From positions 1-32,158 of IMG/VR virus record IMGVR_UViG_2529292726_000025: a stretch of DNA of 32,158 nt; one strand, given 5' to 3'. The position numbers and the translations under genes are program-made. Shown one piece after another: positions 10,022 through 32,158 of the stretch. How positions within the stretch are numbered: position 1 is the stretch's first letter; every line of letters begins with the position of its first letter. A model generated the notes under the pieces. It saw only the letters and a program-made list of their open reading frames with translations, ran no database searches and was not told where the DNA came from. This DNA comes from a virus. Its lineage: Duplodnaviria; Heunggongvirae; Uroviricota; Caudoviricetes.

Positions 10022-10768
10022 ATGAAAAATATCGCGGCAGGTGGTGTTCTTGAGCGTATCCGTAAGCTGACCCCGCAGCATGTAATCGCGCCGTACCGGA
10101 CAGTGGACGAGTGGCGCGAGTGGCAACTGGCAGAAGGGCGAAAACGTAGCGAGGAGATCAACCGCCAGAATCGCCAGTTGCGGGTGGAAAAAATCCTGAA
10201 TCGTTCGGGCATCCAGCCTCTGCACAGCAAATGCTCGTTTGCGAATTATCAGGTGCAGAACGACGGGCAAAAACACGCGCTGAGCCAGGCAAAATCCATC
10301 GCTGACGAACTGATGACCGGGTGCACGAATTTTGTGTTCAGCGGTAAGCCGGGTACCGGAAAGAACCACCTTGCAGCCGCCATTGGCAATCATCTTCTGG
10401 CGAAAGGTCGCAGCGTGATTGTGATAACGGTGGCTGATGTGATGCTGGCGTTACACAACAGCTACGACAACAAAAACTCAGGCGAAAAATTTTTACAGGG
10501 GTTGTGTGATGTTGACCTGCTTGTCCTGGATGAAATCGGAATGCAGCGGGATACGCGCAACGAGCAGGTCACGCTGAACCAGATAGTCGACCGCAGAACG
10601 GCTTCGATGCGTAGTGTCGGAATGCTGACGAACCTTAACCACGTAGCGATGAGTACGCTTCTTGGCGAGCGTGTAATGGACCGCATGGTCATGAACGGTG
10701 GTCGCTGGGTGAATTTTAACTGGGAGAGCTGGCGTTCGAATGTCAGACACCTGAGGGTTGTGAAGTAA
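10022..10768 (+). CDS. DnaC-like helicase loader (IstB-type AAA+ ATPase), 248 aa
   Basis: Walker A FSGKPGTGKNHLAAAIG and Walker B DLLVLDEIG. Immediately downstream of the O-like gene. Confidence 0.85.
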   Translation: MKNIAAGGVLERIRKLTPQHVIAPYRTVDEWREWQLAEGRKRSEEINRQNRQLRVEKILNRSGIQPLHSKCSFANYQVQNDGQKHALSQAKSIADELMTGCTNFVFSGKPGTGKNHLAAAIGNHLLAKGRSVIVITVADVMLALHNSYDNKNSGEKFLQGLCDVDLLVLDEIGMQRDTRNEQVTLNQIVDRRTASMRSVGMLTNLNHVAMSTLLGERVMDRMVMNGGRWVNFNWESWRSNVRHLRVVK

Positions 10769-10782
10769 TTTCAGGAGGATTT

Positions 10783-11178
10783 ATGGCGAAACCTTTTTCT
10801 CTCGAACAGCGGGAAGAGCTGAAGGCACGAATTATCGGGTTGGTACGCAAAAATGAACGCATGACGATGTCGCAGCTGGAGAGAGCGACAGGGGCAGGCT
10901 GGCACTCGGTCCGACGCTGCCTTGTGGATGTGCTGGCTTGTGGCGATTTATACATGTCCGGGGAATACGGTGTTTTTGCATCAGAGCAGGCGTATCGCGT
11001 ATGGCGTAAGACACCGGAGAAAAGAACCGACCTGACACTGATTCGAAAGTTACCAGACGGAGAAATACGCCGCTACGACAGGAGCCAGAACATAATCTGT
11101 CGCGAGTGCCGGAAGAGTGAGGTTATGCAGCGAGTGCTGGCGTTTTATCAGGGTAATTTTCAGGAGGTGATGGCGTGA
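10783..11178 (+). CDS. Hypothetical prophage protein with possible HTH, 131 aa
   Basis: ORF with AGGAGG-type Shine-Dalgarno. Segment MTMSQLERATGAGWHSVRRCL is HTH-like. No catalytic motifs. Confidence 0.4.
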   Translation: MAKPFSLEQREELKARIIGLVRKNERMTMSQLERATGAGWHSVRRCLVDVLACGDLYMSGEYGVFASEQAYRVWRKTPEKRTDLTLIRKLPDGEIRRYDRSQNIICRECRKSEVMQRVLAFYQGNFQEVMA

Positions 11179-15263: not shown

Positions 15264-16018
15264 ATGGAAGAACAGCACGGTAATTACTTTATAAAACGAA
15301 TTCAGTTGATTGGAAGGGGTGCATTTGGCTTTGTTGAACACGTTAAGGTTTACAACCTCAACAAGGGTGAATGTGGGGATTATGCTAGAAAGGTGAAAAA
15401 CCAGAGCTTTTGGCGCAAATAGAGCAGTTTAGAAGGCGTTTTAAAAGGGAGGTCGTGTATCAATCACATTGCGTACATAGCAATATTGTTCCTATTTATT
15501 TGTGCGATTTGTTTGCCGAGAATCCATGGTTCATTATGGATAAAGCAGAATGTGATCTTGAGCACGAAATAACGAACAACCTTCTTACAACAGATCAAAA
15601 AATTTCAATAGTGAAAATGGTATTAGATGGTGTAGCTCACATCCATGCGAAAGGCTATTTACACAGAGATATAAAACCATTTAATGTCTTGCGATTTAGC
15701 GACGGAACATACAAGGTGTCTGATTTTGGTCTGGTAAAAGATACAAATCCCGAAGGGGATACCACTAAATTGACCGAGATCGGTACCCGTATGGGAAGTA
15801 CAAGATATATGGCTCCCGAGATTTTATATAATGCCGAGTATTCAGTTAAGACTGATGTTTATGCGGTGGGGCGGTTAATTGAGGACTTAAATTTAGATGA
15901 TAAAAAAATAAAGCCTATCATAGCGAAGTGTACCAGGATGGATAAAGATGATAGATATCAGACAATAGATGATGTGGCGTTTGATTTTGTGCATTCTTTT
16001 TTAAGGAGTGAGTCATGA
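15264..16018 (+). CDS. Hanks-type (eukaryotic-like) Ser/Thr protein kinase, interrupted by a -1 frameshift in an A5 run (15396-15400)
   Basis: Glycine loop IGRGAFGFV, beta-3 lysine YARKVK, catalytic loop HRDIKPFN, DFG (VSDFGL) and APE (YMAPEIL). The N-lobe fragment 15264-15422 and catalytic fragment 15410-16018 are in different frames. Confidence 0.8.
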
Positions 16019-16758
16019 TTCAGCTGATAGCGACTTCATCATTCTCGTATCCAAAAGAACCAGGTAGGGTCAACGAAGATTCATTGCTTCCTCCCAAAAT
16101 TGTAGGGGATGGCATCTTATTTGCCGTAGCTGATGGTGTAGGTTCATACACTGGTGCCAGTCAGGCTTCATCAATGGCAATTGCTGAACTTTCAGCATTG
16201 ACAAGCTTATCTTTTGACACAGTTCCGGATGTATTTGATGAAGTTAAGCGAAAGGTTATGTCGTTAGCTGATGTTAATGATGAGTTCGATAAAGCTGCTA
16301 CTACACTTACGTTTTGTTATGTTTGTGATAGCGGAATTATTATTGGTCATATTGGTGATTGTCGTTTGTATTGCATTGGAGAGAAGAAAGCATACCAATT
16401 GACGAAGGACGATACCAGGCATCAGATGCTAATTGATCAGAATATTTTTAAACCCAGAGATTTGAAGGATAAACCGGGCAAAAATATCTTAACGACGGCT
16501 ATAGCCTCAAATGTTGATATGGAATACGACTGTGATTTTATCACATGGAAAGATTTACCTAGTATTAACGGGGTATATCATCTGTGTATCATGTCTGATG
16601 GGGTTCATAACGTTTGGGAAAAACGCCCCAGATTTACATCAAATACGATGAGTAATAGTCAGAAGTTTTCTAATGGCATTTTGCGTCGTATAGAGAGAGC
16701 CGGACCTGATGATGACTTTTCTTTAGTAAGTATAATGGTGCGTGTGACGTCAGATTAG
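16015..16758 (+). CDS. PP2C-family (PPM) Ser/Thr protein phosphatase, 247 aa
   Basis: PPM motifs NEDS, FAVADGVGS, HIGDCRLY, MSDGV and PDDDFS. ATGA start/stop overlap with the kinase indicates translational coupling. Confidence 0.8.
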   Translation: MIQLIATSSFSYPKEPGRVNEDSLLPPKIVGDGILFAVADGVGSYTGASQASSMAIAELSALTSLSFDTVPDVFDEVKRKVMSLADVNDEFDKAATTLTFCYVCDSGIIIGHIGDCRLYCIGEKKAYQLTKDDTRHQMLIDQNIFKPRDLKDKPGKNILTTAIASNVDMEYDCDFITWKDLPSINGVYHLCIMSDGVHNVWEKRPRFTSNTMSNSQKFSNGILRRIERAGPDDDFSLVSIMVRVTSD

Positions 16759-17325: not shown

Positions 17326-17820
17326 ATGACTAATACTGTAAAAATATCCAGTTGTGAGTTAATCAACGCTGATTGCCTGAAATTTATCCAGACCTTACCG
17401 GAAAACTCTGTCGATCTGATAGTCACAGACCCGCCATACTTTAAAGTGAAGCCCGAGGGCTGGGATAACCAGTGGGAGGGCGACGATGATTACCTGAAAT
17501 GGCTGGACCAGTGTCTGGCGCAGTTCTGGCGGGTACTGAAGCCTGCCGGAAGTCTTTACCTGTTCTGTGGTCATCGCCTGGCATCTGACACCGAAATCAT
17601 GATGCGTGAGCGCTTTAATGTGCTGAACCACATTATCTGGGCGAAGCCGTCCGGACGCTGGAACGGGTGCAATAAGGAAAGTCTGCGGGCGTATTTTCCG
17701 GCAACAGAGCGCATTCTGTTTGCAGAACATTATCGGCACCATTCAAACATCTCCCCAAGTCTACTAAAGTCTTTCAAAACCCCTTATAATCCGCGTATTA
17801 AAGCCCCGTTCGTCTTTTGA
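17326..17820 (+). pseudogene. DNA N6-adenine (or N4-cytosine) methyltransferase, DPPY-first type, 3'-truncated at about 17750
   Basis: N-terminal motif IV LIVTDPPYF and conserved core through ERILFAE. The C-terminal AdoMet-binding FxGxG region is absent; the last 20 or so codons are junk-like and span a 23-bp direct repeat. Confidence 0.65.
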
Positions 17821-17844
17821 CGTCTACTAAAGTCCCTCAAAATC
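17759..17844. repeat. Imperfect 23-bp direct repeat pair at the prophage/satellite junction (att or Int arm-site candidate)
   Basis: gtctactaaagtctttcaaaacc (17759-17781) and gtctactaaagtccctcaaaatc (17822-17844), 20 of 23 identical. Followed by gggggtac / gtaccccc inverted repeats before int. Confidence 0.5.
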
Positions 17845-17906
17845 TACGGTCAGATGGGGGTACTTATGGGGGTATTTACTGTTCGGTTTAGTGGAGGTAC
17901 CCCCAA

Positions 17907-19121
17907 GTGAAACTCAATGCCCGTCAAATAGACACAGCCAAGCCAAAAGAGAAGGCTTACAAGCTGGCCGATGGTGGCGGTTTGTATCTCTTGGTAAAAC
18001 CTAATGGAGGTAAATACTGGCGACTTAAATATCGTGTAGCTGGTAAAGAGAAGCTATTGGCACTAGGTGTTTATCCTGAGGTTACTCTAGCCGATGCTCG
18101 GGCAAAACGTGAAGATGCGAAAAGAGGTATCGCTGGTGGTATCGATCCGATGGAAGCGAAACGAGAGGAAAAGATTGCCCGGGAAACGCAGTTAAACAAC
18201 ACCTTCAAAGATATTGCCATTGAGTGGCACAGCAGCAAATTAAAAAAATGGTCTGCTGGTTATGCTTCAGACATCCTCGAAGCCTTCAACAAAGATGTGT
18301 TCCCTTACATTGGCAAAAAAACCATCGCCGAAATCAAACCACTTGAACTTCTGAATGTGCTGCGGCGCATCGAGGGGCGCGGTGCTACAGAAAAAGCCAA
18401 AAAAGTGAGGCAGCGGTGCGGGGAAGTTTTCCGCTATGCAATAGTCACTGGTCGCGCAGAGTATAACCCTGCACCAGACCTTACTAGCGCGATGCAAGGC
18501 CATGAATCTAATCATTACCCTTTCCTTACAGCCAAAGAATTACCTGATTTTTTCAAGGCATTGTCCAGTTACTCAGGAAGCGCATTGGTTGTTATGGCGG
18601 CTCGTCTACTGATTATCACAGGCTTGCGGACTGGCGAACTACGTGGCGCATTATGGGATGAAATTGATTTCAACAAGGCTCTCTGGGAGATACCCGCTTC
18701 ACGTATGAAAATGCGGCGGCCTCATATTGTGCCATTGTCTGAGCAGGCTCTTTCGCTTATTGGGAAGATTAGAGAAATAACAGGCAATTACCCTCTTATG
18801 TTTCCCGGGCGCAATGATCCAAGGAAAACAATGAGCGAGGCCAGCATAAACCAAGTGTTTAAGCGCATTGGCTACGCTGGACGTGTAACTGGTCATGGGT
18901 TCCGGCACACTATGAGTACGATTTTGCATGAGCAGGGCTATAACACCGCGTGGATAGAAACGCAGCTCGCTCACGTTGATAAGAACTCAATTCGTGGCAC
19001 ATACAACCATGCGCAATATCTGGATGGAAGGCGGGAGATGCTTCAATGGTATGCCGACTATATGGATTCTCTCGAGCATAGCGGAAATGTGGTGCATATG
19101 GTGTTTGAAAAACACGCATGA
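17907..19121 (+). CDS. P4-type tyrosine integrase, 404 aa
   Basis: GTG start after a GGAGG Shine-Dalgarno. P4-like N-terminus (KAYKLADGGGLYLLVKPNGGKYWRLKYR) and catalytic R..HxxR..Y (RTGELRGALWDEIDF; HGFRHTMST; RGTYNHAQY). Confidence 0.9.
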   Translation: MKLNARQIDTAKPKEKAYKLADGGGLYLLVKPNGGKYWRLKYRVAGKEKLLALGVYPEVTLADARAKREDAKRGIAGGIDPMEAKREEKIARETQLNNTFKDIAIEWHSSKLKKWSAGYASDILEAFNKDVFPYIGKKTIAEIKPLELLNVLRRIEGRGATEKAKKVRQRCGEVFRYAIVTGRAEYNPAPDLTSAMQGHESNHYPFLTAKELPDFFKALSSYSGSALVVMAARLLIITGLRTGELRGALWDEIDFNKALWEIPASRMKMRRPHIVPLSEQALSLIGKIREITGNYPLMFPGRNDPRKTMSEASINQVFKRIGYAGRVTGHGFRHTMSTILHEQGYNTAWIETQLAHVDKNSIRGTYNHAQYLDGRREMLQWYADYMDSLEHSGNVVHMVFEKHA

Positions 19122-21428: not shown

Positions 21429-22288
21429 CCGTCCAGAAGAAGACATTTTCACTGGCTGGTATGTCGCCAAAATCCAGCAATATGACGGCAAAGTCAGGCA
21501 TTAATACAGCAGATGCAAGCAAAGTTTATCATTTGCTGGTGGTCGGAACGGATGCCTTAACCATATCAGAAATCTCGGGCGATGATATTAGCATTGAGAA
21601 GGTCAGCGGCTGCGCCAGAAAATTTCTGGTCGTAGATGATGTCTTCCGCTCGTGTAGTGACTCCACAAAAACATTCGTCCACGCGCGTGACGTTAACGAA
21701 ATGAGCGCGATGTACTGTGCATCTGGTGCTTCCAATAGCGAGTTTTCGGAGTCCATAAAAAAGAGCTTGCCGTTATGCGGCAACACGGTTTATGGTTATA
21801 AGGCACCTCATAAAACGGGTGCCGGGATTGGCGTCCTGGTAAATCGAATGGCGACATATGACGCGCCGAGCGTCTTTTTTTATGTCGTAGGTCTGACTCA
21901 CCCATTTTTTGGGCGTTGGTGTATAATCCAGCGCCTTTGTCAATCAATGGTGGCTCAGGCAGGGGCTTCTTCGGAAGCGCCGGTATCCATTCGAGCCGGT
22001 TACGCCAACCCTGTCTGGGCTACCACCAGCGAAATTGGCGTTTCCGGTGGTAGCGTTACATGCTATCGAATGGAGGCTGCCACATGCTGGCTACTACCCC
22101 TACCCAAAAACCGCAATTTATCTGGATTATCGCCGCAGTTCGCCGCAGTTCGCCGCGATTGCCCGACAATTACCGCCAAAATTCATCATATTGCTGCCGA
22201 GTCTGAACGCGATGCTCGCCGTTCTCTGGTGCGCGATCACGTCTGCTTTTTTGCTGGTCGTATCCGCATGGAGGTGGCACATGATTAA
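21422..22288 (+). CDS. Hypothetical satellite-element protein, 288 aa, containing a tandem DNA repeat
   Basis: Long ORF in the operon. Contains the 10-bp tandem duplication cgccgcagtt at 22133-22160. Confidence 0.4.
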
Positions 22289-23771: not shown

Positions 23772-26528
23772 ATGCGAAACATTGATCTTATCCGTCAGGT
23801 TATCAGTGCGTCTGAAAACAACTGGCCTCATGTGCTGGGCTGTCTGAACATAAATGTCCCTGACTCTCCTCGCCGTCATGCTCCCTGCCCTGCATGTGGG
23901 GGCAAAGATCGATTCCGGTTCGACGACAACGGGCGCGGTAGCTTCATCTGTAATCAGTGCGGCGCTGGTGATGGGCTGGATTTAATTAAACGCGTAAATA
24001 ACTGCGACACAACAGAGGCGGCGCTTCTTGCCGCTGATGTTCTGGGTATTGATTACCGGACAACGGAAACACCAGAAGCCACCAGCCAGAAACGGGAACA
24101 ACTGGAAACCGAGCGCCAGCGACGCGAACAGGAGCGCCTGAAAAGGGCAGAGAAGGACGAACAACAAAGACGGGATACGTTTTCCCGTCAGTTTGATGAC
24201 ATGCGCAGAAAGGCTGTAAACGGCAAATCTGATTATCTGGTTGCGAAAGGGGTAGGTGATTTTACATTCCCAGTGTTGCCCGATGGATCTCTGTTGCTGG
24301 CGCTGGTGGATAAATCCGGCGCAGTCACAGCAGCACAGACTATTACCTCACATGGTGAAAAAAGACTCCTGACAGGTTCAGCAAAGCGAGGGGCATATCA
24401 CGCCATAAACGCACCAGAAACAACACAGAGCATCTTAATCGCAGAAGGGCTGGCAACGGCATTATCTGCCCATTTAATTCGTCCAGAATCGCTGACAGTG
24501 GCGGCGATTGATGCCGGGAACCTGTTATATGTCGCCCAGGTACTGCGGGATAAATTTCCTTCAGCACAAATCATCATTGCTGCGGATAACGACCACAGCG
24601 AAGGAAGACAAAACACGGGGAGAATAGCAGCAGAAAAAGCAGCTTTATCTGTTTCTGGATGGGTGGCATTACCCCCGACAGATCACAAAGCAGACTGGAA
24701 TGATTACCACCAAAAACACGGCATTAAATGCGCCACAGAAGCGTTCAATAAGTCAATGTACCAACCACAGGGTAATGGCGTGAAACAGCAGCCACAGACC
24801 ATTGAGGGAAGCGATTTTAAGGTTATGGATACCGACCCACTGAAACCAAGAATAGAAAGCCGCGAGGATGGTATTTATTGGGTATCTCCGAGAGCTGACA
24901 GCCAGAGTGGAGAAATCATCAATAACGAAAGCTGGTTATGTTCTCCGTTAAGCGTTATCGGTACTGGCAGAGACGATAAAGACCAGTATCTCATTCTTCG
25001 CTGGCTGTCGTTTGGTTCTGAAACGCCGACAACCGCTGCCATTCCACTGGCTGATATTGGTGAACGTGAAGGATGGCGCACACTTAAAGCTGGTGGGGTA
25101 AATGTCACGACCAAAAGCAGCCTCAGAGCAATACTGGCAGACTGGCTACAACGCAGTGGCTCTCGTGAATTGTGGCGTGTTGCTCATGCCACTGGCTGGC
25201 AATGCGGAGCGTACATCATGCCTGATGGGGAAATCATCGGAACACCTGAAAATCCTGTGCTGTTCAGCGGGAGAAGCTCAGCCGCAGCCGGATATACCGT
25301 CTCAGGGAGCGCGAAAAGCTGGCGTGATAACGTGGCGCGTCTGGCCTTTGGTAACTATTCAATGATGACCGGGATCGGCGCAGCACTGGCAGCGCCATTG
25401 ATTGGGCTGGTGGGCGCTGACGGGTTCGGCATTCATTTCTATGAGCAGTCGAGCGCAGGTAAGACCACCACGGCAAACGTGGCGAGCAGCTTATACGGCA
25501 ACCCTGATTTACTGCGGCTGACGTGGTACGGAACCGCGCTGGGGCTGGCAAATGAAGCCGCCGCCCACAATGACGGACTAATGCCGCTTGATGAAGTTGG
25601 TCAGGGCGCTGATCCTGTCAGTGTTTCACAGTCTGCCTATGCGTTATTTAACGGTGTAGGGAAACTGCAAGGCGCTAAAGATGGTGGAAACCGGGATCTA
25701 AAACGCTGGCGTACAGTGGCAATCAGCACTGGAGAAATGGATTTAGAAACATTTATCGCTACTTCCGGGCGAAAAACCAAAGCCGGGCAACTGGTGCGAC
25801 TGCTGAATATTCCGTTGAGTAAAGCAGTACGCTTTCACGATTACCAGAACGGAAAACAGCACGCAGACGCACTGAAAGACGCTTACCAGCATCACCACGG
25901 CGCAGCCGGGCGTGAGTGGATTAAATGGCTGGCAGACCACCAGCAACAGGCTATTAAAACTGTTCGTGACTGCGAAAGCAGATGGAGAAGCCTGATTCCA
26001 TCCGATTATGGTGAGCAGGTTCACCGTGTAGCCGCGCGATTTGCCATTCTGGAGGCCGCATTGCTGTTAGGCGAGGTTGTAACAGGCTGGGATGCTCAGA
26101 CATGCCGTGATGCGATACAGCACAGCTATAACGCATGGTTGCGCGAGTTCGGCACAGGTAACAAAGAACATCAGCAGATTATTGAACAAACGGAGGCATT
26201 TCTTAATGCCTATGGGCTTAGCCGTTTTGCACCATTTCCATACAGCCCGGCAGATTTGCCAATCAAAGATTTAGCCGGATACCGTCAGCGTGGAGAACAT
26301 GACGAAAGCCCAATGATTTTCTACACATTCCCGGCCACATTTGAAAAGGAGATCGCATGTGGTTTCAACGCAAAACAGTTTGCTGAAGTGTTGAAAAAAG
26401 CCGGGATGCTAACCCCACCAAACAGCGGTCGTGGATACCAAAGAAAATCACCACGTATTCAGGGACGACAAATAAACGTTTATGTACTCAATTACCAGCC
26501 AGGAGATTACAACTCATCTGAAGAATGA
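23772..26528 (+). CDS. Satellite-phage primase / replicase (P4 alpha-like), 918 aa
   Basis: N-terminal zinc-binding primase motif (CPACGGKDRFRFDD...FICNQCG). Large multi-domain protein. Iteron origin lies immediately downstream, as with P4 alpha and ori. Confidence 0.8.
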   Translation: MRNIDLIRQVISASENNWPHVLGCLNINVPDSPRRHAPCPACGGKDRFRFDDNGRGSFICNQCGAGDGLDLIKRVNNCDTTEAALLAADVLGIDYRTTETPEATSQKREQLETERQRREQERLKRAEKDEQQRRDTFSRQFDDMRRKAVNGKSDYLVAKGVGDFTFPVLPDGSLLLALVDKSGAVTAAQTITSHGEKRLLTGSAKRGAYHAINAPETTQSILIAEGLATALSAHLIRPESLTVAAIDAGNLLYVAQVLRDKFPSAQIIIAADNDHSEGRQNTGRIAAEKAALSVSGWVALPPTDHKADWNDYHQKHGIKCATEAFNKSMYQPQGNGVKQQPQTIEGSDFKVMDTDPLKPRIESREDGIYWVSPRADSQSGEIINNESWLCSPLSVIGTGRDDKDQYLILRWLSFGSETPTTAAIPLADIGEREGWRTLKAGGVNVTTKSSLRAILADWLQRSGSRELWRVAHATGWQCGAYIMPDGEIIGTPENPVLFSGRSSAAAGYTVSGSAKSWRDNVARLAFGNYSMMTGIGAALAAPLIGLVGADGFGIHFYEQSSAGKTTTANVASSLYGNPDLLRLTWYGTALGLANEAAAHNDGLMPLDEVGQGADPVSVSQSAYALFNGVGKLQGAKDGGNRDLKRWRTVAISTGEMDLETFIATSGRKTKAGQLVRLLNIPLSKAVRFHDYQNGKQHADALKDAYQHHHGAAGREWIKWLADHQQQAIKTVRDCESRWRSLIPSDYGEQVHRVAARFAILEAALLLGEVVTGWDAQTCRDAIQHSYNAWLREFGTGNKEHQQIIEQTEAFLNAYGLSRFAPFPYSPADLPIKDLAGYRQRGEHDESPMIFYTFPATFEKEIACGFNAKQFAEVLKKAGMLTPPNSGRGYQRKSPRIQGRQINVYVLNYQPGDYNSSEE

Positions 26529-26550: not shown

Positions 26551-26668
26551 GGTGTTGGTTCAGTTGGTTCAGTTGGTTCAATTTGTAAAGAGTATTGTTT
26601 TATAAGGATTTTATTCTTTTTATTGAACCAACACTGAACCAACAACACGGTATTTTGAACCAACACAA
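26551..26668. repeat. Candidate replication origin: iterons TTGGTTCAG x3 and inverted GAACCAACA x3 flanking an AT-rich spacer
   Basis: ggtgttggttcagttggttcagttggttcaa ... AT-rich 40 bp ... ttgaaccaacactgaaccaacaacacgg..ttgaaccaacac. Confidence 0.6.
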
Positions 26669-26984
26669 TGTGACTGAATTGATGCGCACAACACCTGGCT
26701 GGCATCAGAGAGTGTTTTACGAGACTTTCGTAAAATCCTGTGTACAAGGGCGTGACGTTTTTGAAAGTGAGCACTACGAAATTTTCGTAGTTCAAAAAAC
26801 AGCCTTTGAGAAGTTGTTATGCCTGTTCAGCAAACCATCCGCATAGCTGATCGCGAATCAAATTACCAATGGAGCCAGAAGCAAGGGCAGAACTGGAAAG
26901 CGCCTGCCGTGAAGAGTAATGCGACACCATAAATATAGTTTTTAGAGTCCATAAAAAACCTGTCAAAACCTGACATACAGAACG

Positions 26985-27017
26985 ATGCCACCAGCTACTG
27001 AGCGGTGGCATTTTTTT
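26985..27017 (+). terminator. Strong intrinsic terminator
   Basis: atgccaccagc-tactga-gcggtggcat hairpin (GC-rich stem of about 10 bp) followed by tttttt. Confidence 0.65.
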
Positions 27018-27112
27018 GTGCTATTTGTTTCATATTTTGCAATTACGATGATGAATATTGCGATTTGTGAAACTATAATAACTGTTGTTTTATACAGTTC
27101 TAAGGGGGCGTT

Positions 27113-27286
27113 ATGGCTATTTCAGTAAAGCCAGTATTGATAAGTGAGAAGCAAATGGAAGCGATAAAGAAAATTCAGGAGGAGCAGCGTAAAAAATCAG
27201 AGGTAGGAGTTGCGCCAACGATCCACGAAATTGCTCGGGGATTAATGGATAAGGCGCTGGCTTACACTTTAACTGGACGTGGGTAA
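27113..27286 (+). CDS. Small putative ribbon-helix-helix-like DNA-binding protein, 57 aa (below the ORF-track cutoff)
   Basis: Manual translation: MAISVKPVLISEKQMEAIKKIQEEQRKKSEVGVAPTIHEIARGLMDKALAYTLTGRG. Shine-Dalgarno AAGGGGG 5 nt upstream. First gene after the terminator and an AT-rich promoter-like region. Confidence 0.45.
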   Translation: MAISVKPVLISEKQMEAIKKIQEEQRKKSEVGVAPTIHEIARGLMDKALAYTLTGRG

Positions 27287-27290
27287 ATCA

Positions 27291-28757
27291 ATGGCTACGT
27301 GGCAACAGGGTATTAATTCTGGTGGTTTTCTGGCTGGCATCGGTACGCAAAATGAGAATGCGCCAAAGGCAAGCGACATTAACGCAACGCTTGGTCTGAT
27401 CCGCGAAAACAATGAACTGGCTCGCTCAGGTGCAAATAACGTTGGTCTGACCGCGTTACGTGGTCTGGCTGGAGTTGCTGATATTTATAAGCAGCAGCAA
27501 CAGCAGGAGCGTAAAGCGGCATTCCAGAAAGGTTATGCAGATGCTTATGCGTCCGGCGACAGGGAGCAGATGCGTAATCTTATTACAGCATTCCCAGAAG
27601 AGTTTGAGGAAGTCCGTAAAGGGATGAGTTATGTCGATGATGCTCAAAGGGATGATTATGGCAATCTGGCGCTCAAAGCACAGGTAGCCTCATCGCTTGG
27701 TCCGGGCGCATTTGGCAGGTTCATGATGGATAATGAGCAGGAGATGCGTCGTTTAGGTATCCCTCCAGAAACTATTGCTGAAATGCAGGTTAATGACCCG
27801 CAGGGCTTCCAGCATTTCGCAGGTAATCTGGCGCTGTTTTCTCTCGGTCATGAGAAGTATTTCGATATCAAAGATCAAATGGAAGGTCGGGATATTGAGC
27901 GCGGCGAGTTGGCAGAGACAATCCGCAGCAATCAGGCTGGCGAAGCACTTCAGGCGAGAGGGCAGGATATTAGCCGAGCAAATGCGTTAACGTCAGCATA
28001 TGCACCAACAGCAGCAATGCAGAATTACAATCAGTACGCTCAAATGTTAAAGGCGGATCCAGAGGGGGCGGCGGCATTTGCGGCAGCGGCTGGAATTAAT
28101 ACAAACGCCAAAAAATTAATGAGTGTTAGGGAAAACGATGATGGCACTGTCACAAAATACTACACAGACGGAAGTGAAGAGCAGGGAAAACTAAACCAGC
28201 CAATATCTGGAGATGGGTTTCGTCCAATAGCTTTGCCAACAGCTCAAAAGATCATGGAAAAGTCGCCAGAAGGGGCTAAAAAAGCTGCTGGATTTGCATA
28301 CAGAGTTAGGGATGCTCTTGATTCAATGGATACACTGAAAGGCCAGATTAGCCCACAGCGAGTGGCGATCATTAATAATGCTTTGGGTAATGGGACGCTG
28401 GCTAACTTAACGCTCAGCCCAACAGAGCAGCAATACGTTGTTAATGCTAATGACGCAATAATGGCAATACTCCGTCAGGAAACAGGGGCAGCTATCGTAC
28501 CTGCTGAAATGTCAAAATATTATCAAATGTATTTCCCTCAGCCTGGTGATTCCACAAAAACCATTGATACCAAGCGCCGGAAGATGGAAAACCAGTTCAA
28601 TTCGCTGAAAGCTGCTTCTGGTCGAGCTTATGATGCTTTGCGGGTTATTTCAGCAGTTGACAGAGGAACTTCTTCTTCGTCGCAGACATTGCCGCAATCT
28701 GAGCAGGTATCACAGCCAGCAGCCAGCAGTAACTTTTCTTCACTATGGGGTGATTAA
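27291..28757 (+). CDS. Large Gln/Ala-rich, predicted alpha-helical protein of unknown function, about 488 aa
   Basis: Long ORF (the track gives GTG 27279; ATG 27291 is more likely). No Walker, nuclease or other catalytic motif seen. Coupled to the downstream gene by a TAATG overlap. Confidence 0.6.
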   Translation: MATWQQGINSGGFLAGIGTQNENAPKASDINATLGLIRENNELARSGANNVGLTALRGLAGVADIYKQQQQQERKAAFQKGYADAYASGDREQMRNLITAFPEEFEEVRKGMSYVDDAQRDDYGNLALKAQVASSLGPGAFGRFMMDNEQEMRRLGIPPETIAEMQVNDPQGFQHFAGNLALFSLGHEKYFDIKDQMEGRDIERGELAETIRSNQAGEALQARGQDISRANALTSAYAPTAAMQNYNQYAQMLKADPEGAAAFAAAAGINTNAKKLMSVRENDDGTVTKYYTDGSEEQGKLNQPISGDGFRPIALPTAQKIMEKSPEGAKKAAGFAYRVRDALDSMDTLKGQISPQRVAIINNALGNGTLANLTLSPTEQQYVVNANDAIMAILRQETGAAIVPAEMSKYYQMYFPQPGDSTKTIDTKRRKMENQFNSLKAASGRAYDALRVISAVDRGTSSSSQTLPQSEQVSQPAASSNFSSLWGD

Positions 28758-30862
28758 TGGCTAAAGCATGGAAAGATGTTATCGCCTCTCCACAGTATCA
28801 GGCGTTAGCACCAGAACAAAAAACGCAGGCTCAGGAGCAATACTTCAACGAAGTCGTTGCCCCGCAAGCCGGAGAAAGTGTAGAGCAGGCTAAGCAGGCT
28901 TTTTATGCTGCCTATCCACTACCATCAACGAATGAAATAGACCGAGCCCAATCAGCAACTCAAAATATTCAACATACATCATCTGATAATTCTCTTGCGT
29001 CAGGGTATGCAAAGTTAGCGACTCAGCAAAGAGAGGGGCTTGAACGTTCAGCAGAACAGGGAGCCAGTCTTGGGGCTGCGATGCGCGATGCTATAACAGG
29101 CGAAAGCCGAATGACTCCAGAGATGGAGAGACTGCAAAATGTCGACCTTGCCCCAGAGTTAACCTCACTCAGCATGGATGCTCTAAAAGCTCGATGGTCT
29201 CAACTTTTCGGCTCTGACGCATCTCAGGAAAAGATTCTTCAGAGCATGGGAGCGAAATTAAGGCAGGATGAGAAGGGTAACACTATCGTTTCCCTACCAT
29301 CCGGTGATTATGCTCTGAACAAGCCGGGTTTATCACCGCAAGACGTGGCATCGTTTCTGGCTAATGCGCTGGCGTTTACACCAGCGGGCAGGACCGGAAC
29401 GGTGCTGGGGGCCATAGGGAAATCAGCAGCTACAGATTTAGCACTACAGGGAGCCACCAGCCTCGCTGGTGGAGAAGATATTGATCCGTTACAAACGGTA
29501 ATCTCTGCTGGCATTGGCGGCATTGGTAAGGGTCTGGAGAATACAGTGAGTGCCGTTTCGAGGGCCGTTCGCGGTGATATGGCACCGGAAGCGAAAGCCG
29601 CTGTTGATTTTGCATCGGAAAGAACCCTACCGTTAATGACCAGTGACGTACTGAAAGATAAAAACACTGTGCAGAGTCTGGCCCAGAAAACAGGCGAAAA
29701 AATTCCTTTTTTTGGAACGGGTACGAACAGGCTGAATCAACAACAGGCTCGGGAAAATCTGGTCAGAACATATAACGATGGTCTGGGAGGCATTTCAGAT
29801 AAACAGCTTTATGAGTCTGCTACTAAAGGGCAGCAAAAATTCATTGAGGCCGCAGGTAAGCGATATAACCGCATAATTGACGCTATGGGGGATACCCCTG
29901 TCGACCTATCAAACACGGTAAAAGCTATCGACAATCAGATTGCCGTGTTAAGCCGCCCGGGCAAATCTCAGGATAGAGCCGCGGTAAAAGTCTTGCAGCA
30001 ATTTAAAGACGATATCACCAGCGGACCCAATGACCTGCGTCTGGCGAGAGAAAACAGAACTGACCTTCGAAAGCGGTTCATGAATTCAAACGAGACTGTT
30101 GATAAAGACACGCTCCAGAAAGCCAGCGATATTGTCTACAAGGCATATACGCTGGATATGAGAAGGGCAGTAGCCCAGAAACTGGGTTCAGAAGAAGCAG
30201 CCAATATGGCAAGGGTTGATCGCTCATGGTCTAAATTCAATGACATGATGGGAAGAACGCGCGTTCAAAAGGCAATAGCCAGCGGCAAGGCCACGCCTGA
30301 GGATGTAACAAAACTCGTGTTTAGCCAAAGCCCATCAGAACGTTCTCAGCTTTACAGGCTTCTGGATGACAATGGTAGGCAAAACGCACGAGCAGCCATA
30401 GTTCAGAATGCTGTAGATAAGGCGACTGATCCGTCTGGAAATATCAGTGTTGAGAAGTTTATTAATGCGTTACACCGGAACAGGAAGCAATCAGCAACTT
30501 TCTTTAAAGGCGTGCACGGAAAGGAACTGGACGGCATTATTAAATACCTCAACGATACCAGACAGGCGGCAAAGGTTGACGGTCAGAAATTAAACAGCCA
30601 GAAACTTTATGGCCTGCTGGTTGGTGGAGGCGCTATAAATGCGGCAGTTCTGGCGGGGATGCTGAAAACGGCTGCGTTTGTTGTTCCTGCTGCTGGTGCT
30701 TTAGGCGGAGCAGCGAAGGCATACGAAAGCCCTGTTATACGAAATGCCTTATTACGTCTGGCAAATACGCCAAAAGGTAGCACAGCATATGACAGAGCGA
30801 TCAGTACAGTCACACAATCACTGACCACAGCAGCACAAGCATCGCAAAAGGAAGCTCAATAA
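28757..30862 (+). CDS. Large unknown-function protein with C-terminal glycine-zipper-like hydrophobic segment, 701 aa
   Basis: Long ORF. C-terminal LYGLLVGGGAINAAVLAGMLKTAAFVVPAAGALGGAAKAY is membrane-helix or glycine-zipper-like. Otherwise helical and Q/A/K-rich without catalytic motifs. Confidence 0.6.
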   Translation: MAKAWKDVIASPQYQALAPEQKTQAQEQYFNEVVAPQAGESVEQAKQAFYAAYPLPSTNEIDRAQSATQNIQHTSSDNSLASGYAKLATQQREGLERSAEQGASLGAAMRDAITGESRMTPEMERLQNVDLAPELTSLSMDALKARWSQLFGSDASQEKILQSMGAKLRQDEKGNTIVSLPSGDYALNKPGLSPQDVASFLANALAFTPAGRTGTVLGAIGKSAATDLALQGATSLAGGEDIDPLQTVISAGIGGIGKGLENTVSAVSRAVRGDMAPEAKAAVDFASERTLPLMTSDVLKDKNTVQSLAQKTGEKIPFFGTGTNRLNQQQARENLVRTYNDGLGGISDKQLYESATKGQQKFIEAAGKRYNRIIDAMGDTPVDLSNTVKAIDNQIAVLSRPGKSQDRAAVKVLQQFKDDITSGPNDLRLARENRTDLRKRFMNSNETVDKDTLQKASDIVYKAYTLDMRRAVAQKLGSEEAANMARVDRSWSKFNDMMGRTRVQKAIASGKATPEDVTKLVFSQSPSERSQLYRLLDDNGRQNARAAIVQNAVDKATDPSGNISVEKFINALHRNRKQSATFFKGVHGKELDGIIKYLNDTRQAAKVDGQKLNSQKLYGLLVGGGAINAAVLAGMLKTAAFVVPAAGALGGAAKAYESPVIRNALLRLANTPKGSTAYDRAISTVTQSLTTAAQASQKEAQ

Positions 30863-30921
30863 CAGATGACCATGGATGGTTGGCTATAATAGTAATTAGT
30901 TTTTTCAAATAGTTATGAACA

Positions 30922-31320
30922 TTAACACTTGCCTTTAACATTGCCGACAAATGAGCCTGTAAATGAGCCTATATCAGATCGACTAATTGTTCGTGTATGG
31001 ATCACTTTTCCGTCATTTGAGATTGCCCATGTGACAAGCGTCAGTTGACCATCTCGATAGCTTCTTCCCATCATGGCATTCGGAGATAGCGGGTAATAAT
31101 CAATACCTCCACCTATACCATCTTTTGCCAAGATAAGATCCGCCTTCTCTTTACTTATTACCAAATGAAAGGTATCTGGTATAGATGATAACTTATAGTT
31201 ATACCCATCTGAACTTGAGGCTTCTTGTCCTTTCAGATCACCAATAATCCAGCATTCAGCGTTCGCTCCAAAAGAAGCAAATAATAAACCGGAGACAACC
31301 AATCGCTTCAATTGATTCAC
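30922..31320 (-). CDS. Small secreted protein (signal peptide) of unknown function, about 132 aa
   Basis: GTG start preceded by AAGGGAGG. N-terminus VNQLKRLVVSGLLFASFGANA|ECW is signal-peptide-like with an A-x-A cleavage motif. The track ORF extends further upstream to 31617. Confidence 0.45.
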   Translation of the reverse strand: MNQLKRLVVSGLLFASFGANAECWIIGDLKGQEASSSDGYNYKLSSIPDTFHLVISKEKADLILAKDGIGGGIDYYPLSPNAMMGRSYRDGQLTLVTWAISNDGKVIHTRTISRSDIGSFTGSFVGNVKGKC

Positions 31321-31670
31321 ACCAACCCTCCCTTTAGCGTTGTTTAGAATGGCAATCATCATATATCCAAGACATGGCATTTGGTACATAGCTTGGGTCG
31401 GGATTTCAAATCCGCCCCCGTTGATGGGGTCGTTACAGTACGCGCATATCCGCTTTATGTGAAACAGGAAGATTTTTCTGATATCACTGCCACAGCAAAA
31501 CACCAATTTCGAGACAAGTACGCGCGCGAGGGGTATCAGTTGCAAAAAGTTTTGCAACTGCGTCCGACCAGTACGCACACAATGGGTAAGCGTAAACTGA
31601 CCGCCGTATGTAGCCATCAGACGAGAATTGGTAACTTAGACGCCCATCTGATATAGACGGACATCTAAGT

Positions 31671-32096
31671 ATGGAATTACAGGACTGGCGAAAAGAACCT
31701 CGTAAAAACTATTCGAATGAATTCAAACTTCGTATGGTGGAACTGGCATCACAACCTGGAGCTTGTGTTGCACAGATTGCACGTGAAAATGGCGTCAATG
31801 ATAATGTTATTTTCAAATGGCTCAGGCTCTGGCAGAACGAAGGGCGTGTTTCGCGGCGTCTTCCGGTAACGACCTCTTCTGACACTGGCGTTGAATTATT
31901 ACCTGTAGAAATAACGCCGGATGAGCAGAAAGAACCTGTGGCGGCCATTGCGCCGTCTTTATCCACTTCCACTCAGACCAGAGTCAGTGCCAGTTCCTGC
32001 AAGGTGGAATTCCGTCACGGTAACATGACGCTGGAAAATCCATCGCCAGAGCTGCTCACAGTGTTGATCCGTGAACTGACCGGGAGGGGAAGATGA
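31671..32096 (+). CDS. IS66-family accessory protein (orfA / TnpA-like), 141 aa
   Basis: N-terminal HTH-like region (YSNEFKLRMVELASQPGACVAQIARENGVNDNVIFKWLRLW) typical of IS66 orfA. Confidence 0.7.
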   Translation: MELQDWRKEPRKNYSNEFKLRMVELASQPGACVAQIARENGVNDNVIFKWLRLWQNEGRVSRRLPVTTSSDTGVELLPVEITPDEQKEPVAAIAPSLSTSTQTRVSASSCKVEFRHGNMTLENPSPELLTVLIRELTGRGR

Positions 32097-32158
32097 TCTC
32101 ACTCCCATCAGGTACCCGTATCTGGCTCGTTGCCGGCGTTACCGATATGCGTAAATCC
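32093..32158 (+). CDS. IS66-family orfB (TnpB-like), 5' fragment cut by the window end
   Basis: Begins MISLPSGTRIWLVAGVTDMRKS, the characteristic IS66 TnpB N-terminus. Confidence 0.65.
   Translation, partial: MISLPSGTRIWLVAGVTDMRKS

Follow-up and report, generated by a model that had tools for sequence, protein, structure and literature searches.

What would a phage satellite without portal, coat, scaffold, tail or terminase genes do with an operon for ejection proteins? The question is raised by a stretch of 32,158 nucleotides (the window), in which a gp20-gp16 operon sits directly after the primase and the iteron origin of a satellite-like element. An earlier note on this DNA had proposed an undescribed membrane-acting anti-phage module here, with a remnant of podovirus ejection proteins as the alternative.

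The satellite and its backbone

By its gene order integrase-AlpA-AntA-Ash/C4-primase, the element is an integrative phage satellite of about 18-19 kb. Its left end is marked by the att core ATTATCGGCACCA (17729-17741), followed on the plus strand by the gene of a P4-type tyrosine integrase (17907-19121), so that the left-end part spans 17729..19121. The satellite primase-helicase, with Zn-ribbon, Toprim, and DUF927, lies on the plus strand at 23772..26528 (phrog_1139, E 3.5e-178), and 3' of the primase is the iteron origin (26554-26666) with three copies of GTTGGTTCA and three of the inverted TGAACCAAC. The context of a P4-like satellite given in the earlier note was largely right in its primase and origin, but without Sid, Delta, and Psu, none of which was found, the element is no canonical P4. 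In the E. coli form of the satellite, no recognisable terS or capsid-redirection gene was found.

Convergent to the operon, the minus strand encodes a 146-aa protein (30922..31362; phrog_2651) with a signal-peptide-like N-terminus. Its gene occupies the slot of the sieA-type genes in P22-like phages and in the A34-type satellite. The A34 satellite encodes here a SieA-like multi-TM protein of 204 aa that contains the motif NRYPGEARRARK (phrog_7745, E 3.5e-4) and is 94.6% identical to the product of the gene adjoining gp16 in the P22-like phage L014.

Two intact homologues of P22 ejection proteins

The operon comprises three co-directional open reading frames on the plus strand, at 27113-27286 (57 aa), 27291-28757 (488 aa counted from the ATG, 492 aa if the upstream GTG is used), and 28757-30862 (701 aa). 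These frames had been described correctly, as had the coupling of the two large genes, which overlap by one base at TAATG. The claim that the large proteins have no recognisable motifs was wrong, since both give very strong family matches. The 488-aa protein matches PF16928 (E 8.8e-85, 284 bits at a cutoff of 29.7) and, over its full length, phrog_917 (E 3e-145). The 701-aa protein matches phrog_770 with residues 19-700 (E 9.4e-155), its relatives carry PF26808 (Phage_P22_gp16), and every one of the 2,417 members of the main gp16 cluster has 701 aa. It is 84% identical to its counterpart in phage L012 and 67% to that in phage N7, and the gp16 relatives in complete P22-like morphogenesis operons are 67-87% identical. 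Six relatives with ≤87% identity were sampled, and each is located inside such a complete operon, with the order portal-scaffold-coat-gp4-gp10-gp26-gp14-gp7-gp20-gp16. The earlier note had itself held that this context would speak against its anti-phage module, and the module as proposed is not upheld given the clear gp20/gp16 homology and the lack of any defence-system match in PADLOC.

The large proteins are rich in Ala (13.7-13.8%) and Gln (7-8%), as had been claimed, while Lys reaches 6.7% only in the 701-aa protein. The hydrophobic Gly/Ala-rich stretch of the latter is present, but it lies at residues ~616-653, short of the C-terminal end, and is conserved in phage gp16 proteins. Judged from the family matches, the two large genes are intact and homologous to P22 gp20 and gp16 over their full length. 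gp20 is the periplasmic tube of the DNA conduit and gp16 its inner-membrane part. The podovirus alternative was thus right in its homology, but not in calling the genes a remnant, because the pair is intact, is conserved at the same place in hundreds of genomes, and is one version of an entry-protein cassette.

The dN/dS values of 0.15 for gp16 and 0.28 for gp20 indicate purifying selection; much of this signal may date from the alleles' time in phages. Synonymous sites in the cassette have diverged about ten times as much as those in the backbone, certain blocks match phage alleles at 100% identity, and DNA similarity to phages begins exactly at 27281. According to windowed identities, the 488-aa gp20 is itself a mosaic of phage-type sequence in the first ~80 residues and satellite-type sequence in the C-terminal two thirds. 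The satellite genes are mosaics that have recently and repeatedly recombined with P22-like phage alleles.

A common platform for exchangeable entry genes

The strong terminator that had been noticed ahead of the operon is confirmed (~26984..27019, plus strand; dG -24.1 kcal/mol, z -5.9, followed by a T run (T7)). None of 200 shuffles folds equally well, and a feature scan of the sequence lists its inner stem. The terminator insulates the cassette from the primase/origin transcription unit. Of the claimed promoter, only a perfect and conserved -10 element (TATAAT, 27074-27079) could be retained; there is no -35 element, and a generic sigma-70 scan gave no promoter for the stretch from the terminator to the first gene. 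The -10 element is part of a conserved expression platform (27030..27112, plus strand), about 90 bp of which can be aligned across 14 elements from several genera with differing downstream cargo, the -10 element and its flanking columns being invariant. The platform also carries repeated ATTGCAAT / TTTCA..TGAAA elements, which are operator-like in appearance, and a Shine-Dalgarno sequence (AAGGGGG, 27103-27109). The lack of a full sigma-70 consensus fits a regulated or activator-dependent promoter, and the missing -35 element together with the operator-like repeats suggests that the cassette is off by default.

The same platform is kept across all cassette types. At every one of 56 related IMG/VR loci, as at 5 loci from other genera, a virion entry cassette follows immediately on the small gene, whose family always directly precedes virion entry genes. 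The content of the 56 cassettes differs: 13 contain P22 ejection proteins, nine T7/podovirus internal virion proteins, three a tape measure, 17 an SLT-protein with Dit and baseplate hub, and 14 other hub, fibre or phrog_7694 sets; a terS-like HTH protein is part of some sets. By gene content, the cassette is a swappable set of virion entry parts behind a common promoter and small gene. The homologues of the 57-aa protein have 53-61 aa and share an invariant GVAPT.H.IARGL.DKAL motif. The structure model of the protein contains two helices and gave no fold match, the sequence gave no profile match, and an RHH fold is unconfirmed. The protein is probably a regulator of the cassette.

The junction from primase to gp20 was found in ~291 of 5,426 complete E. 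coli genomes, and the four-gene form gp14-gp7-gp20-gp16 in ~235 E. coli genomes. The window's satellite form has neither gp14 nor gp7, and has 176 bp in place of 1,263 bp. The two-gene form recurs independently in Serratia and in the IMG/VR loci L020-L023. The gene downstream of gp20-gp16 varies between relatives while the pair stays.

A possible link to P22-like helpers

A 22-bp motif is present twice in the window, compared to 0.01 matches expected from shuffles. Copy 1, AGTTTTCGGAGTCCATAAAAAA (21741..21762, plus strand), exactly matches a sequence inside terS of CUS-3-type P22-like phages; it is identical to positions 64-85 of L005, with unrelated flanks, and lies in an Ash-like ORF outside the operon region (26975-30870). 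Copy 2 has two mismatches and is located just upstream of the terminator (26937..26958, plus strand). Both copies are found in the same arrangement in all P22-type satellites with enough flanking sequence, and among satellites exact copies of the 22-mer occur only in those with a P22-type cassette. The 80 IMG/VR loci with the 22-mer comprise 64 phages, nine satellites, and seven short terS-only pieces; in 63 of the 64 phages it lies inside TerS. It is also present in CUS-3, N7, phiv205-1, and 720R6. A related P22-like phage of E. coli has its pac site inside terS (10.1101/2022.10.28.514194). The motif is a candidate pac site or pac-site mimic of the satellite; copy 1 precedes isrK by 41 nt and could alternatively be part of the immunity region.

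In the assembly GCF_900093485.1, a circular record of 19,226 bp holds the satellite in circularly permuted form, and the same assembly includes a P22-like phage of 41,305 bp with the 22-mer. Across genomes, the satellite and a CUS-3-type terS prophage occur together in 45 cases compared to 36 expected, an enrichment that is not significant, and the window's own strain has no second match.

Comparison with known systems

With P22 and its relatives (Sf6, HK620, CUS-3, N7; genus Lederbergvirus) the cassette shares the families PF16928 and PF26808, the protein sizes, the order 20 then 16, the translational coupling, the gp16 hydrophobic segment, and an exchange of segments in mosaic fashion that has been described for the phage alleles. 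However, the genes here are part of an ~18 kb integrative satellite, follow a primase and an origin, are led by a satellite-specific small gene and promoter, and in the window form lack gp14 and gp7. The Gram-negative PICIs and P4-like satellites of Enterobacterales (EcCICFT073, P4) resemble the element in integrase, AlpA, and primase, in the P4/P1-type immunity RNAs (C4, isrK) with the Ash/Icd region, in integration at a tRNA 3' end (thrW), in the size of 18-19 kb, and in accessory or defence genes at the ends. In contrast to those, Sid/Delta/Psu, capsid-size, and Rpp/Ppi-type packaging genes were not detected here, the post-primase operon encodes virion DNA-delivery parts, and the implied helper is a P22-like podovirus and not P2 or a lambdoid cos phage. 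Capsid-forming PICIs (cf-PICIs) build capsids of their own and take the tails from the helper. Like these, the satellite would supply part of the virion instead of relying wholly on its helper, but cf-PICIs contribute head and packaging genes whereas this family has only entry/ejection parts and no capsid genes.

The tail assembly inhibition (Tai) systems share the slot adjoining pri and the general target, the virion tail or entry apparatus. He et al. 2024 (PMC11364771) place them in the accessory region downstream of PICI pri, describe their genes as chosen for no homology to known anti-phage systems, and report one version that acts on P22 and HK620. By that description, the present cassette is set apart by its full-length structural homologues, with up to four genes and 4.3 kb. 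In the searchable literature, we found no description of satellites with such ejection-protein cassettes.

Function of the cassette

The explanation that we favour, with about as much doubt as confidence, is that the operon is a virion-entry cassette of a satellite exploiting P22-like podoviruses, whose gp20-gp16 pair is loaded into helper virions. The cassette would be switched on during the growth of a P22-like helper that has a CUS-3-type small terminase, the small protein probably regulating it. Satellite gp20 and gp16 would be built into helper procapsids, satellite DNA would be packaged from the terS-like 22-bp site, and in the next infection the satellite's own cognate pair would build the DNA channel. 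The steps of expression, virion incorporation, and transfer are proposed from the presence and conservation of the genes. Ejection proteins enter procapsids ahead of the DNA; particles with helper DNA would therefore get satellite proteins too, and the benefit to the satellite is not self-evident. It is known that foreign ejection proteins assemble into P22 virions, that gp7 is interchangeable while gp16 and gp20 function only if they are cognate to each other, and that mutations which escape SieA fall into the C-terminal regions of these two proteins (PMC10461980). Because the pair is both the minimal interchangeable unit and the target of SieA, the likely payoff would be altered or protected DNA entry.

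According to PMC11364771, the region adjoining PICI pri is a demonstrated immune hotspot and Tai proteins spoil virion assembly. This position counts against an entry cassette and would suit a defence that is Tai-like in effect, which we regard as rather unlikely: non-cognate gp20-gp16 would co-assemble with the phage's own proteins, and progeny particles would be full but unable to deliver DNA, so that the population is protected. Mismatched gp16/gp20 indeed lead to assembled, non-infectious P22 particles (PMC10461980), in NRZ14408 the satellite alleles differ strongly from their counterparts in the co-resident phage (~34% identity for gp20, ~26% for gp16), and defence genes (Abi_2 and AAA_15/21 pairs) flank the cassette in relatives. 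Yet it is hard to see why most copies hold the full gp14-gp7-gp20-gp16 set if one poison subunit is enough, and why it is just the self-sufficient cognate pair that the minimal form retains. The proteins have their full length, with blocks up to 100% identical to working phage alleles, the spoiled particles would carry satellite DNA too given the pac-like site, and the terS-like proteins in some sister cassettes point to piracy and not to immunity. PADLOC did not report a match for such a defence, nor for a module expressed in the lysogen that would insert into the envelope and block the phage or kill the infected cell. The association of gp16 with membranes (PMC10461980), the hydrophobic Gly/Ala segment, the transcriptional insulation, and the site between defence-rich regions fit such a membrane-acting module, but we consider it very improbable: the segment is an ordinary gp16 feature common to phage copies, the promoter without -35 element and with operator-like repeats suggests a default-off state, and sister cassettes of tape-measure, baseplate-hub, and tail-fibre genes make no sense as membrane effectors.

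The genes could also be a functionless passenger, a P22-like prophage block from gp14 to sieA that was captured by recombination and persists through linkage to a useful neighbour (the SieA-like or another envelope gene) or through recency. The A34-type satellite has the whole contiguous phage block including the SieA-like gene, the window form with its shortened segment resembles a deletion or recombination derivative, and the raised synonymous divergence implies that the alleles largely evolved elsewhere. Nevertheless, a passenger seems improbable given that hundreds of genomes and thousands of database entries have the frames intact, that the pair stays while the downstream gene changes, and that the cassette has a conserved promoter and small gene of its own. 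At least five unrelated kinds of entry proteins on one platform, at 56 of 56 loci across genera, are not accounted for by chance capture.

If the reading as a virion-entry cassette is true, the satellite would equip hijacked virus particles with its own DNA-delivery parts, and could, for example, enter lysogens that exclude ordinary P22-type particles.

Identity of the two large proteins

The three co-directional genes following the satellite primase had been read in an earlier note as a possible undescribed membrane-acting defence module or, alternatively, as a remnant of podovirus ejection proteins. The gene arrangement was described correctly: the open reading frames encode 57 (27113-27286), 488 (27291-28757), and 701 residues (28757-30862), and the claimed TAATG coupling is confirmed by the one-base overlap of the two large genes. 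The 488-residue frame starts with an ATG that is also used by RefSeq; an alternative GTG upstream would yield 492 residues. This protein matches the Pfam family Inj_translocase (PF16928, the P22 gp20 family) over residues 12-228 with an E-value of 8.8e-85 and 284.3 bits, the curated cutoff being 29.7 bits, and PHROG 917 ('released from the phage upon host infection') over its entire length (residues 1-488, E 3e-145). The 701-residue protein matches phrog_770 ('DNA transfer protein', gp16) over residues 19-700 (E 9.4e-155). Its assignment as gp16 is based on this match and on PF26808 (Phage_P22_gp16), which is carried by all of its close database homologues, the model having been scored on these homologues and not on the window protein. 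It is 84% identical to gp16 of phage L012 and 67% identical to gp16 of phage N7. The hydrophobic stretch noted earlier is real (Gly/Ala, residues ~616-653), but phage homologues share it. Sequence searches of the PDB with both large proteins retrieved no solved relative, and an NCBIfam scan of all three proteins gave nothing useful. In RefSeq the large proteins are already named 'phage DNA ejection protein' and 'injection protein'. Judged by their sequences, both are ordinary members of known families.

Relatives sampled at 69-87% identity come from E. coli, Salmonella, Citrobacter, and Yersinia, and all of them, together with phage N7, sit within complete P22-like operons with the order portal, scaffold, coat, gp4, gp10, gp26, gp14, gp7, gp20, gp16. 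The earlier note had itself named such a setting as the observation that would speak against a defence module. Because the relatives belong to complete morphogenesis operons and a PADLOC-DB scan assigned neither large protein to a defence-system family, the idea of a new membrane-acting defence module finds no support. In the phages gp20 lies between gp7 and gp16 in the morphogenesis operon, which is not the case in the window, where gp16 follows gp20 without gp7 or any morphogenesis operon. A four-gene form found in other satellites additionally contains gp14 and gp7 but no head and tail genes. The C-terminus of gp20 (..SLWGD) and the N-terminus of gp16 (MAKAWKDV..) occur as a combination both in the satellites and in the P22-like phage of E. 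coli strain NRZ14408, which would fit a matched interface between the two proteins.

The promoter platform and the small protein

The claimed strong terminator in front of the operon is an extended GC-rich hairpin with seven T on its 3' side (26984-27019) and has a dG of -24.1 kcal/mol and a z-score of -5.9, and no sequence was equally stable in a shuffling test. The AT-rich promoter held up in part: a generic sigma-70 scan was empty between the terminator and the first gene, but a perfect TATAAT is present at 27074-27079. It lacks a -35 element; relatives of several genera retain this hexamer together with about 90 bp of surrounding sequence, and the promoter, the operator-like repeats, and the ribosome-binding site are kept in all cassette types. 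In the alignment of these relatives the repeats ATTGCAAT/ATTGCGAT and TTTCA..TGAAA (27030-27080) overlap the cassette promoter between -35 and -10, and in some relatives TTTCA..TGAAA forms a perfect palindrome. Their layout suggests a binding site for a dimeric regulator (repressor or activator), which might be the small protein.

The small protein had been called RHH-like, a label without support, given that hhalign against an Arc/Mnt alignment returned a probability of 0.2% and that Pfam gave no match. A profile search of the PDB retrieved nothing relevant, and the sole match in PADLOC-DB was to Cas11a at chance level (E 0.017). In the AlphaFold model (pLDDT 77.6) the N-terminal part is extended and the rest forms two helices. 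An origin as a leftover of gp7 or gp14 was rejected, as the protein is similar to neither. Because tblastn found no match among 50,697 phage records, the protein is regarded as specific to satellites. Its homologues, found only in such satellite elements, share the invariant motif GVAPT.H.IARGL.DKAL and are always encoded directly 5' of genes for virion entry proteins.

The satellite element

The window derives from E. coli; across 24.7 kb its identity to strain 510016 is 99.94%. The element of ~18 kb comprises a P4-type integrase (17907-19121), AlpA, an AntA antirepressor, a DUF4222 protein, an Ash/Icd region with isrK and C4 RNAs (21803-22030), a DUF927 primase (23772-26528), and iterons (26554-26666), so that the placement of the genes in a cargo slot after satellite primase and origin was largely correct. 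It shares with P4-like elements the C4 RNA (79.5 bits), isrK (67.1 bits), Phage_ASH, AlpA, and an integrase with arm-binding domain, and with Gram-negative PICIs the order int - alpA - pri/rep, a size within the range of ~10-20 kb, and a specific att site. isrK (21803-21880) and the C4 antisense RNA (21943-22030) together form an RNA immunity module of the P4/P1 type; the element itself lacks sid, delta, and psu, none of which is present in the PGAP annotation either. The left half of the element, scanned with Pfam and PHROG, and the genes to the right of the cassette, scanned with Pfam, gave no match to Psu or Ogr/Delta; the two libraries hold no known model for Sid, and several small open reading frames of the element lie outside these scans. 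Because Sid, Delta, and Psu were not found, we regard the backbone as PICI/P4-like and not as canonical P4.

The junction core ATTATCGGCACCA (17729-17741) corresponds to the 3' end of tRNA-Thr (thrW). Here the satellite splits the DNA-methyltransferase gene of a lambdoid (Qin-like) prophage (split and junction at 17326-17820 and 17729-17741 in the window; 10427-10837 and 29277-29913 in the related record L001), and the same integrase (98% identical) is found at thrW in strain A34. The insertion in the window has the appearance of an integration at a secondary site, within a prophage. A helper-embedded relation to the surrounding prophage, or a cos site shared with it, was rejected since element and prophage have no similarity. 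The prophage carries, downstream of its Q antiterminator, a moron-like insert of low GC content (0.38-0.39) encoding a PP2C phosphatase and a protein with a protein kinase domain (15455-16758; 8556-9859 in L001). At the other end, the window diverges from strain 510016 after 31585, and because an IS66-family orf1 (TnpA-like, 31671-32096) lies past this point, the terminal stretch (31586-32158) of this copy contains an IS insertion to the right of the cassette.

The genes directly following gp16 differ between satellites. In the four-gene satellite of strain A34 (record L003, 20968-21582, minus strand) a 204-residue SieA-like protein with multiple transmembrane segments and the motif NRYPGEARRARK is encoded directly 3' of gp16, and it is 94.6% identical to the product of a gene adjoining gp16 in a P22-like phage. 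sieA has been reported in P22-like prophages only (PMC10461980). The copy on the satellite may act in the exclusion of P22-like phages. In the window the equivalent position (30922-31362, minus strand) is taken by a 146-residue phrog_2651 protein with a signal-peptide-like N-terminus, possibly a periplasmic exclusion or moron protein.

Exchangeable cassettes behind a common platform

Scanning IMG/VR identified 56 loci, all with one common layout. The P22 type accounts for 13 of these (4 two-gene, 9 four-gene) and a T7/podovirus core type for nine, while three encode a tape measure, 17 encode an SLT protein with either Dit and a baseplate hub or a hub, seven a hub with a terS-like HTH protein, five phrog_7694 with a terS-like HTH protein, and one each only a hub or a tail fibre. 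For example, a Serratia cassette contains gp20 and an SLT-gp16 fusion, an Erwinia cassette a 1,049-residue tape measure (phrog_1107), a Klebsiella cassette an SLT protein and Dit, and the cassette of an element from a metagenome T7_gp14-like as well as internal virion proteins. Genes recognisable as defence genes (Abi_2, AAA_15/21 pairs) flank the cassette and do not lie within it. The gap between primase and cassette holds, on the opposite strand, an AAA_15/AAA_21 ATPase with a partner of ~190-200 residues in Raoultella (L016, 7384-9310) and Klebsiella (L018, 7348-9330), and a number of relatives have Abi_2 genes 3' of the cassette. It is the flanks of the cassette that seem to be the true defence hotspots.

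The primase-to-gp20 junction is present in 291 of 5,426 complete E. coli genomes. Because 235 of the 291 have the four-gene form (small gene, gp14 (DUF2824), gp7 (PF25688), gp20, and gp16), the two-gene form of the window is a minority of roughly 56 genomes. It has 176 bp in place of 1,263 bp of the four-gene form, and similarity to phage DNA begins exactly at 27281. All 2,417 member sequences of the main gp16 cluster are 701 residues long. Comparing the two satellite forms gives a dN/dS of 0.15 for gp16 and 0.28 for gp20, with a synonymous divergence (0.21-0.36) that exceeds that of the primase (0.027) about tenfold. The alternative raised in the earlier note, ejection protein genes, is therefore correct with respect to homology but not with respect to a remnant, the pair being intact and widespread. 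The gp20 of the window is a mosaic, of which the first ~80 residues are of phage type (97-100% identical to phage alleles) and the remainder of satellite type, and its gp16 has blocks that are 100% identical to a phage allele. Given this mosaicism and the intact reading frames, the cassette keeps swapping segments with P22-like phages.

Relation to a proposed P22-like helper

The 22-mer AGTTTTCGGAGTCCATAAAAAA (21741-21762) is identical to a stretch inside terS of the NRZ14408 P22-like phage, the flanks being unrelated. A second copy with two mismatches is found in direct orientation just 5' of the terminator (26937-26958); the two matches in the window compare with 0.01 expected. The exact 22-mer is present in 80 IMG/VR loci, namely 64 phages, nine satellites, and seven short terS pieces, and in 63 of the 64 phage loci it falls within the TerS N-terminus. 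The terS type concerned is that of CUS-3, N7, phiv205-1, and 720R6, and among the satellites only those with a P22-type cassette have the exact 22-mer. In P22-like phages terS contains the pac site, for which E. coli phage Gally provides a demonstrated case (10.1101/2022.10.28.514194). By sequence, the 22-bp copies are a candidate pac-site mimic, and their derivation from terS implies satellites of P22-like podoviruses. Because the first copy is only 41 nt upstream of isrK, it could also have a role in the immunity region.

In the NRZ14408 assembly (GCF_900093485.1) the satellite is a separate 19,226-bp record (NZ_LT599831.1) that is circularly permuted within gp16 (1,878 + 229 nt), and a complete 41,305-bp P22-like phage (NZ_LT599830.1) is permuted within terS. 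These permuted separate records indicate that satellite and phage were both excised in the sequenced culture, and suggest excision or replication at the time of sequencing. Together with the terS-like 22-bp site they are circumstantial evidence for the helper-dependent induction, packaging, and high-frequency transfer that characterise PICIs. Papers on NRZ14408 do not mention its phage records. Using a chimeric query for counting, we found the satellite platform in 499 genomes and CUS-3-type terS prophages in 393, and both in 45 genomes versus 36 expected, which is not significant and speaks against a tight dependence on a resident helper.

Possible function of the cassette

P22 virions assemble with foreign ejection proteins (Leavitt et al., PMC10461980). 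The same study found gp7 to be interchangeable and gp16 and gp20 to function only as a cognate pair, located mutations that escape exclusion by the inner-membrane protein SieA in the C-terminal parts of gp16 and gp20, and counted both genes among the most variable of the virion cluster. The minimal cassette of the window is exactly this self-sufficient pair. Going beyond gene presence, conservation, and context, the best reading, to which we give about even chances, is that the satellite's own gp20-gp16 pair would be loaded into helper procapsids, and that particles with satellite DNA would build a satellite-specified conduit. The payoff would likely be altered or exclusion-resistant DNA entry. 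The main competing explanation, which we consider rather unlikely, is a defence by poisoning similar to Tai. In its favour, mismatched gp16/gp20 yield dead particles; PMC11364771 describes the slot adjoining pri as an immune hotspot, and this slot is common to Tai systems and the present cassette. However, the satellites retain complete gene sets and a pac-like site, and sister cassettes carry terS-like genes. Less likely again are a functionless passenger, which would be improbable, and, with slightly lower odds still, a membrane effector expressed in the lysogen.

Extending the loading of satellite ejection proteins to the whole family leads to a more tentative proposal, which we hold to be possible but would not bet on. 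A widespread Enterobacterales satellite family would combine one promoter and small-protein platform with an exchangeable cassette that re-equips hijacked virions with the satellite's DNA-delivery parts, which are P22-type gp20-gp16 here and a T7-type core, tape measure, baseplate hub, or tail fibre elsewhere. With the P22-type pair, particles carrying the satellite would deliver DNA even to cells that shut out ordinary P22-like particles, for instance via SieA. These satellites, with a pac site copied from the helper's terS, would be the first of P22-like podoviruses to be described.

In the literature on satellite-encoded ejection, tape-measure, or tail proteins, including PMC10085698, we found no prior description. 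A satellite family encoding ejection or entry proteins, its conserved platform, and its terS-derived site thus appear to be undescribed in the literature searched. For screens of defence islands, this means that large 'unknown helical proteins' beside a satellite primase can be virion parts and not immune effectors. Known satellites hijack their helpers by redirecting capsid size, packaging, or late transcription, and to our knowledge none brings its own genome-ejection machinery. If the cassette works as proposed, it would add control of the DNA-entry step as a new layer of satellite-helper conflict. Roughly 5-9% of complete E. coli genomes would then contain candidate satellites of P22-like phages, which would provide a natural system for studying what the hypervariable ejection proteins adapt to, with host envelope factors and SieA-type exclusion among the possibilities. 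A further implication is that satellites could change the range of hosts that transducing particles effectively reach.
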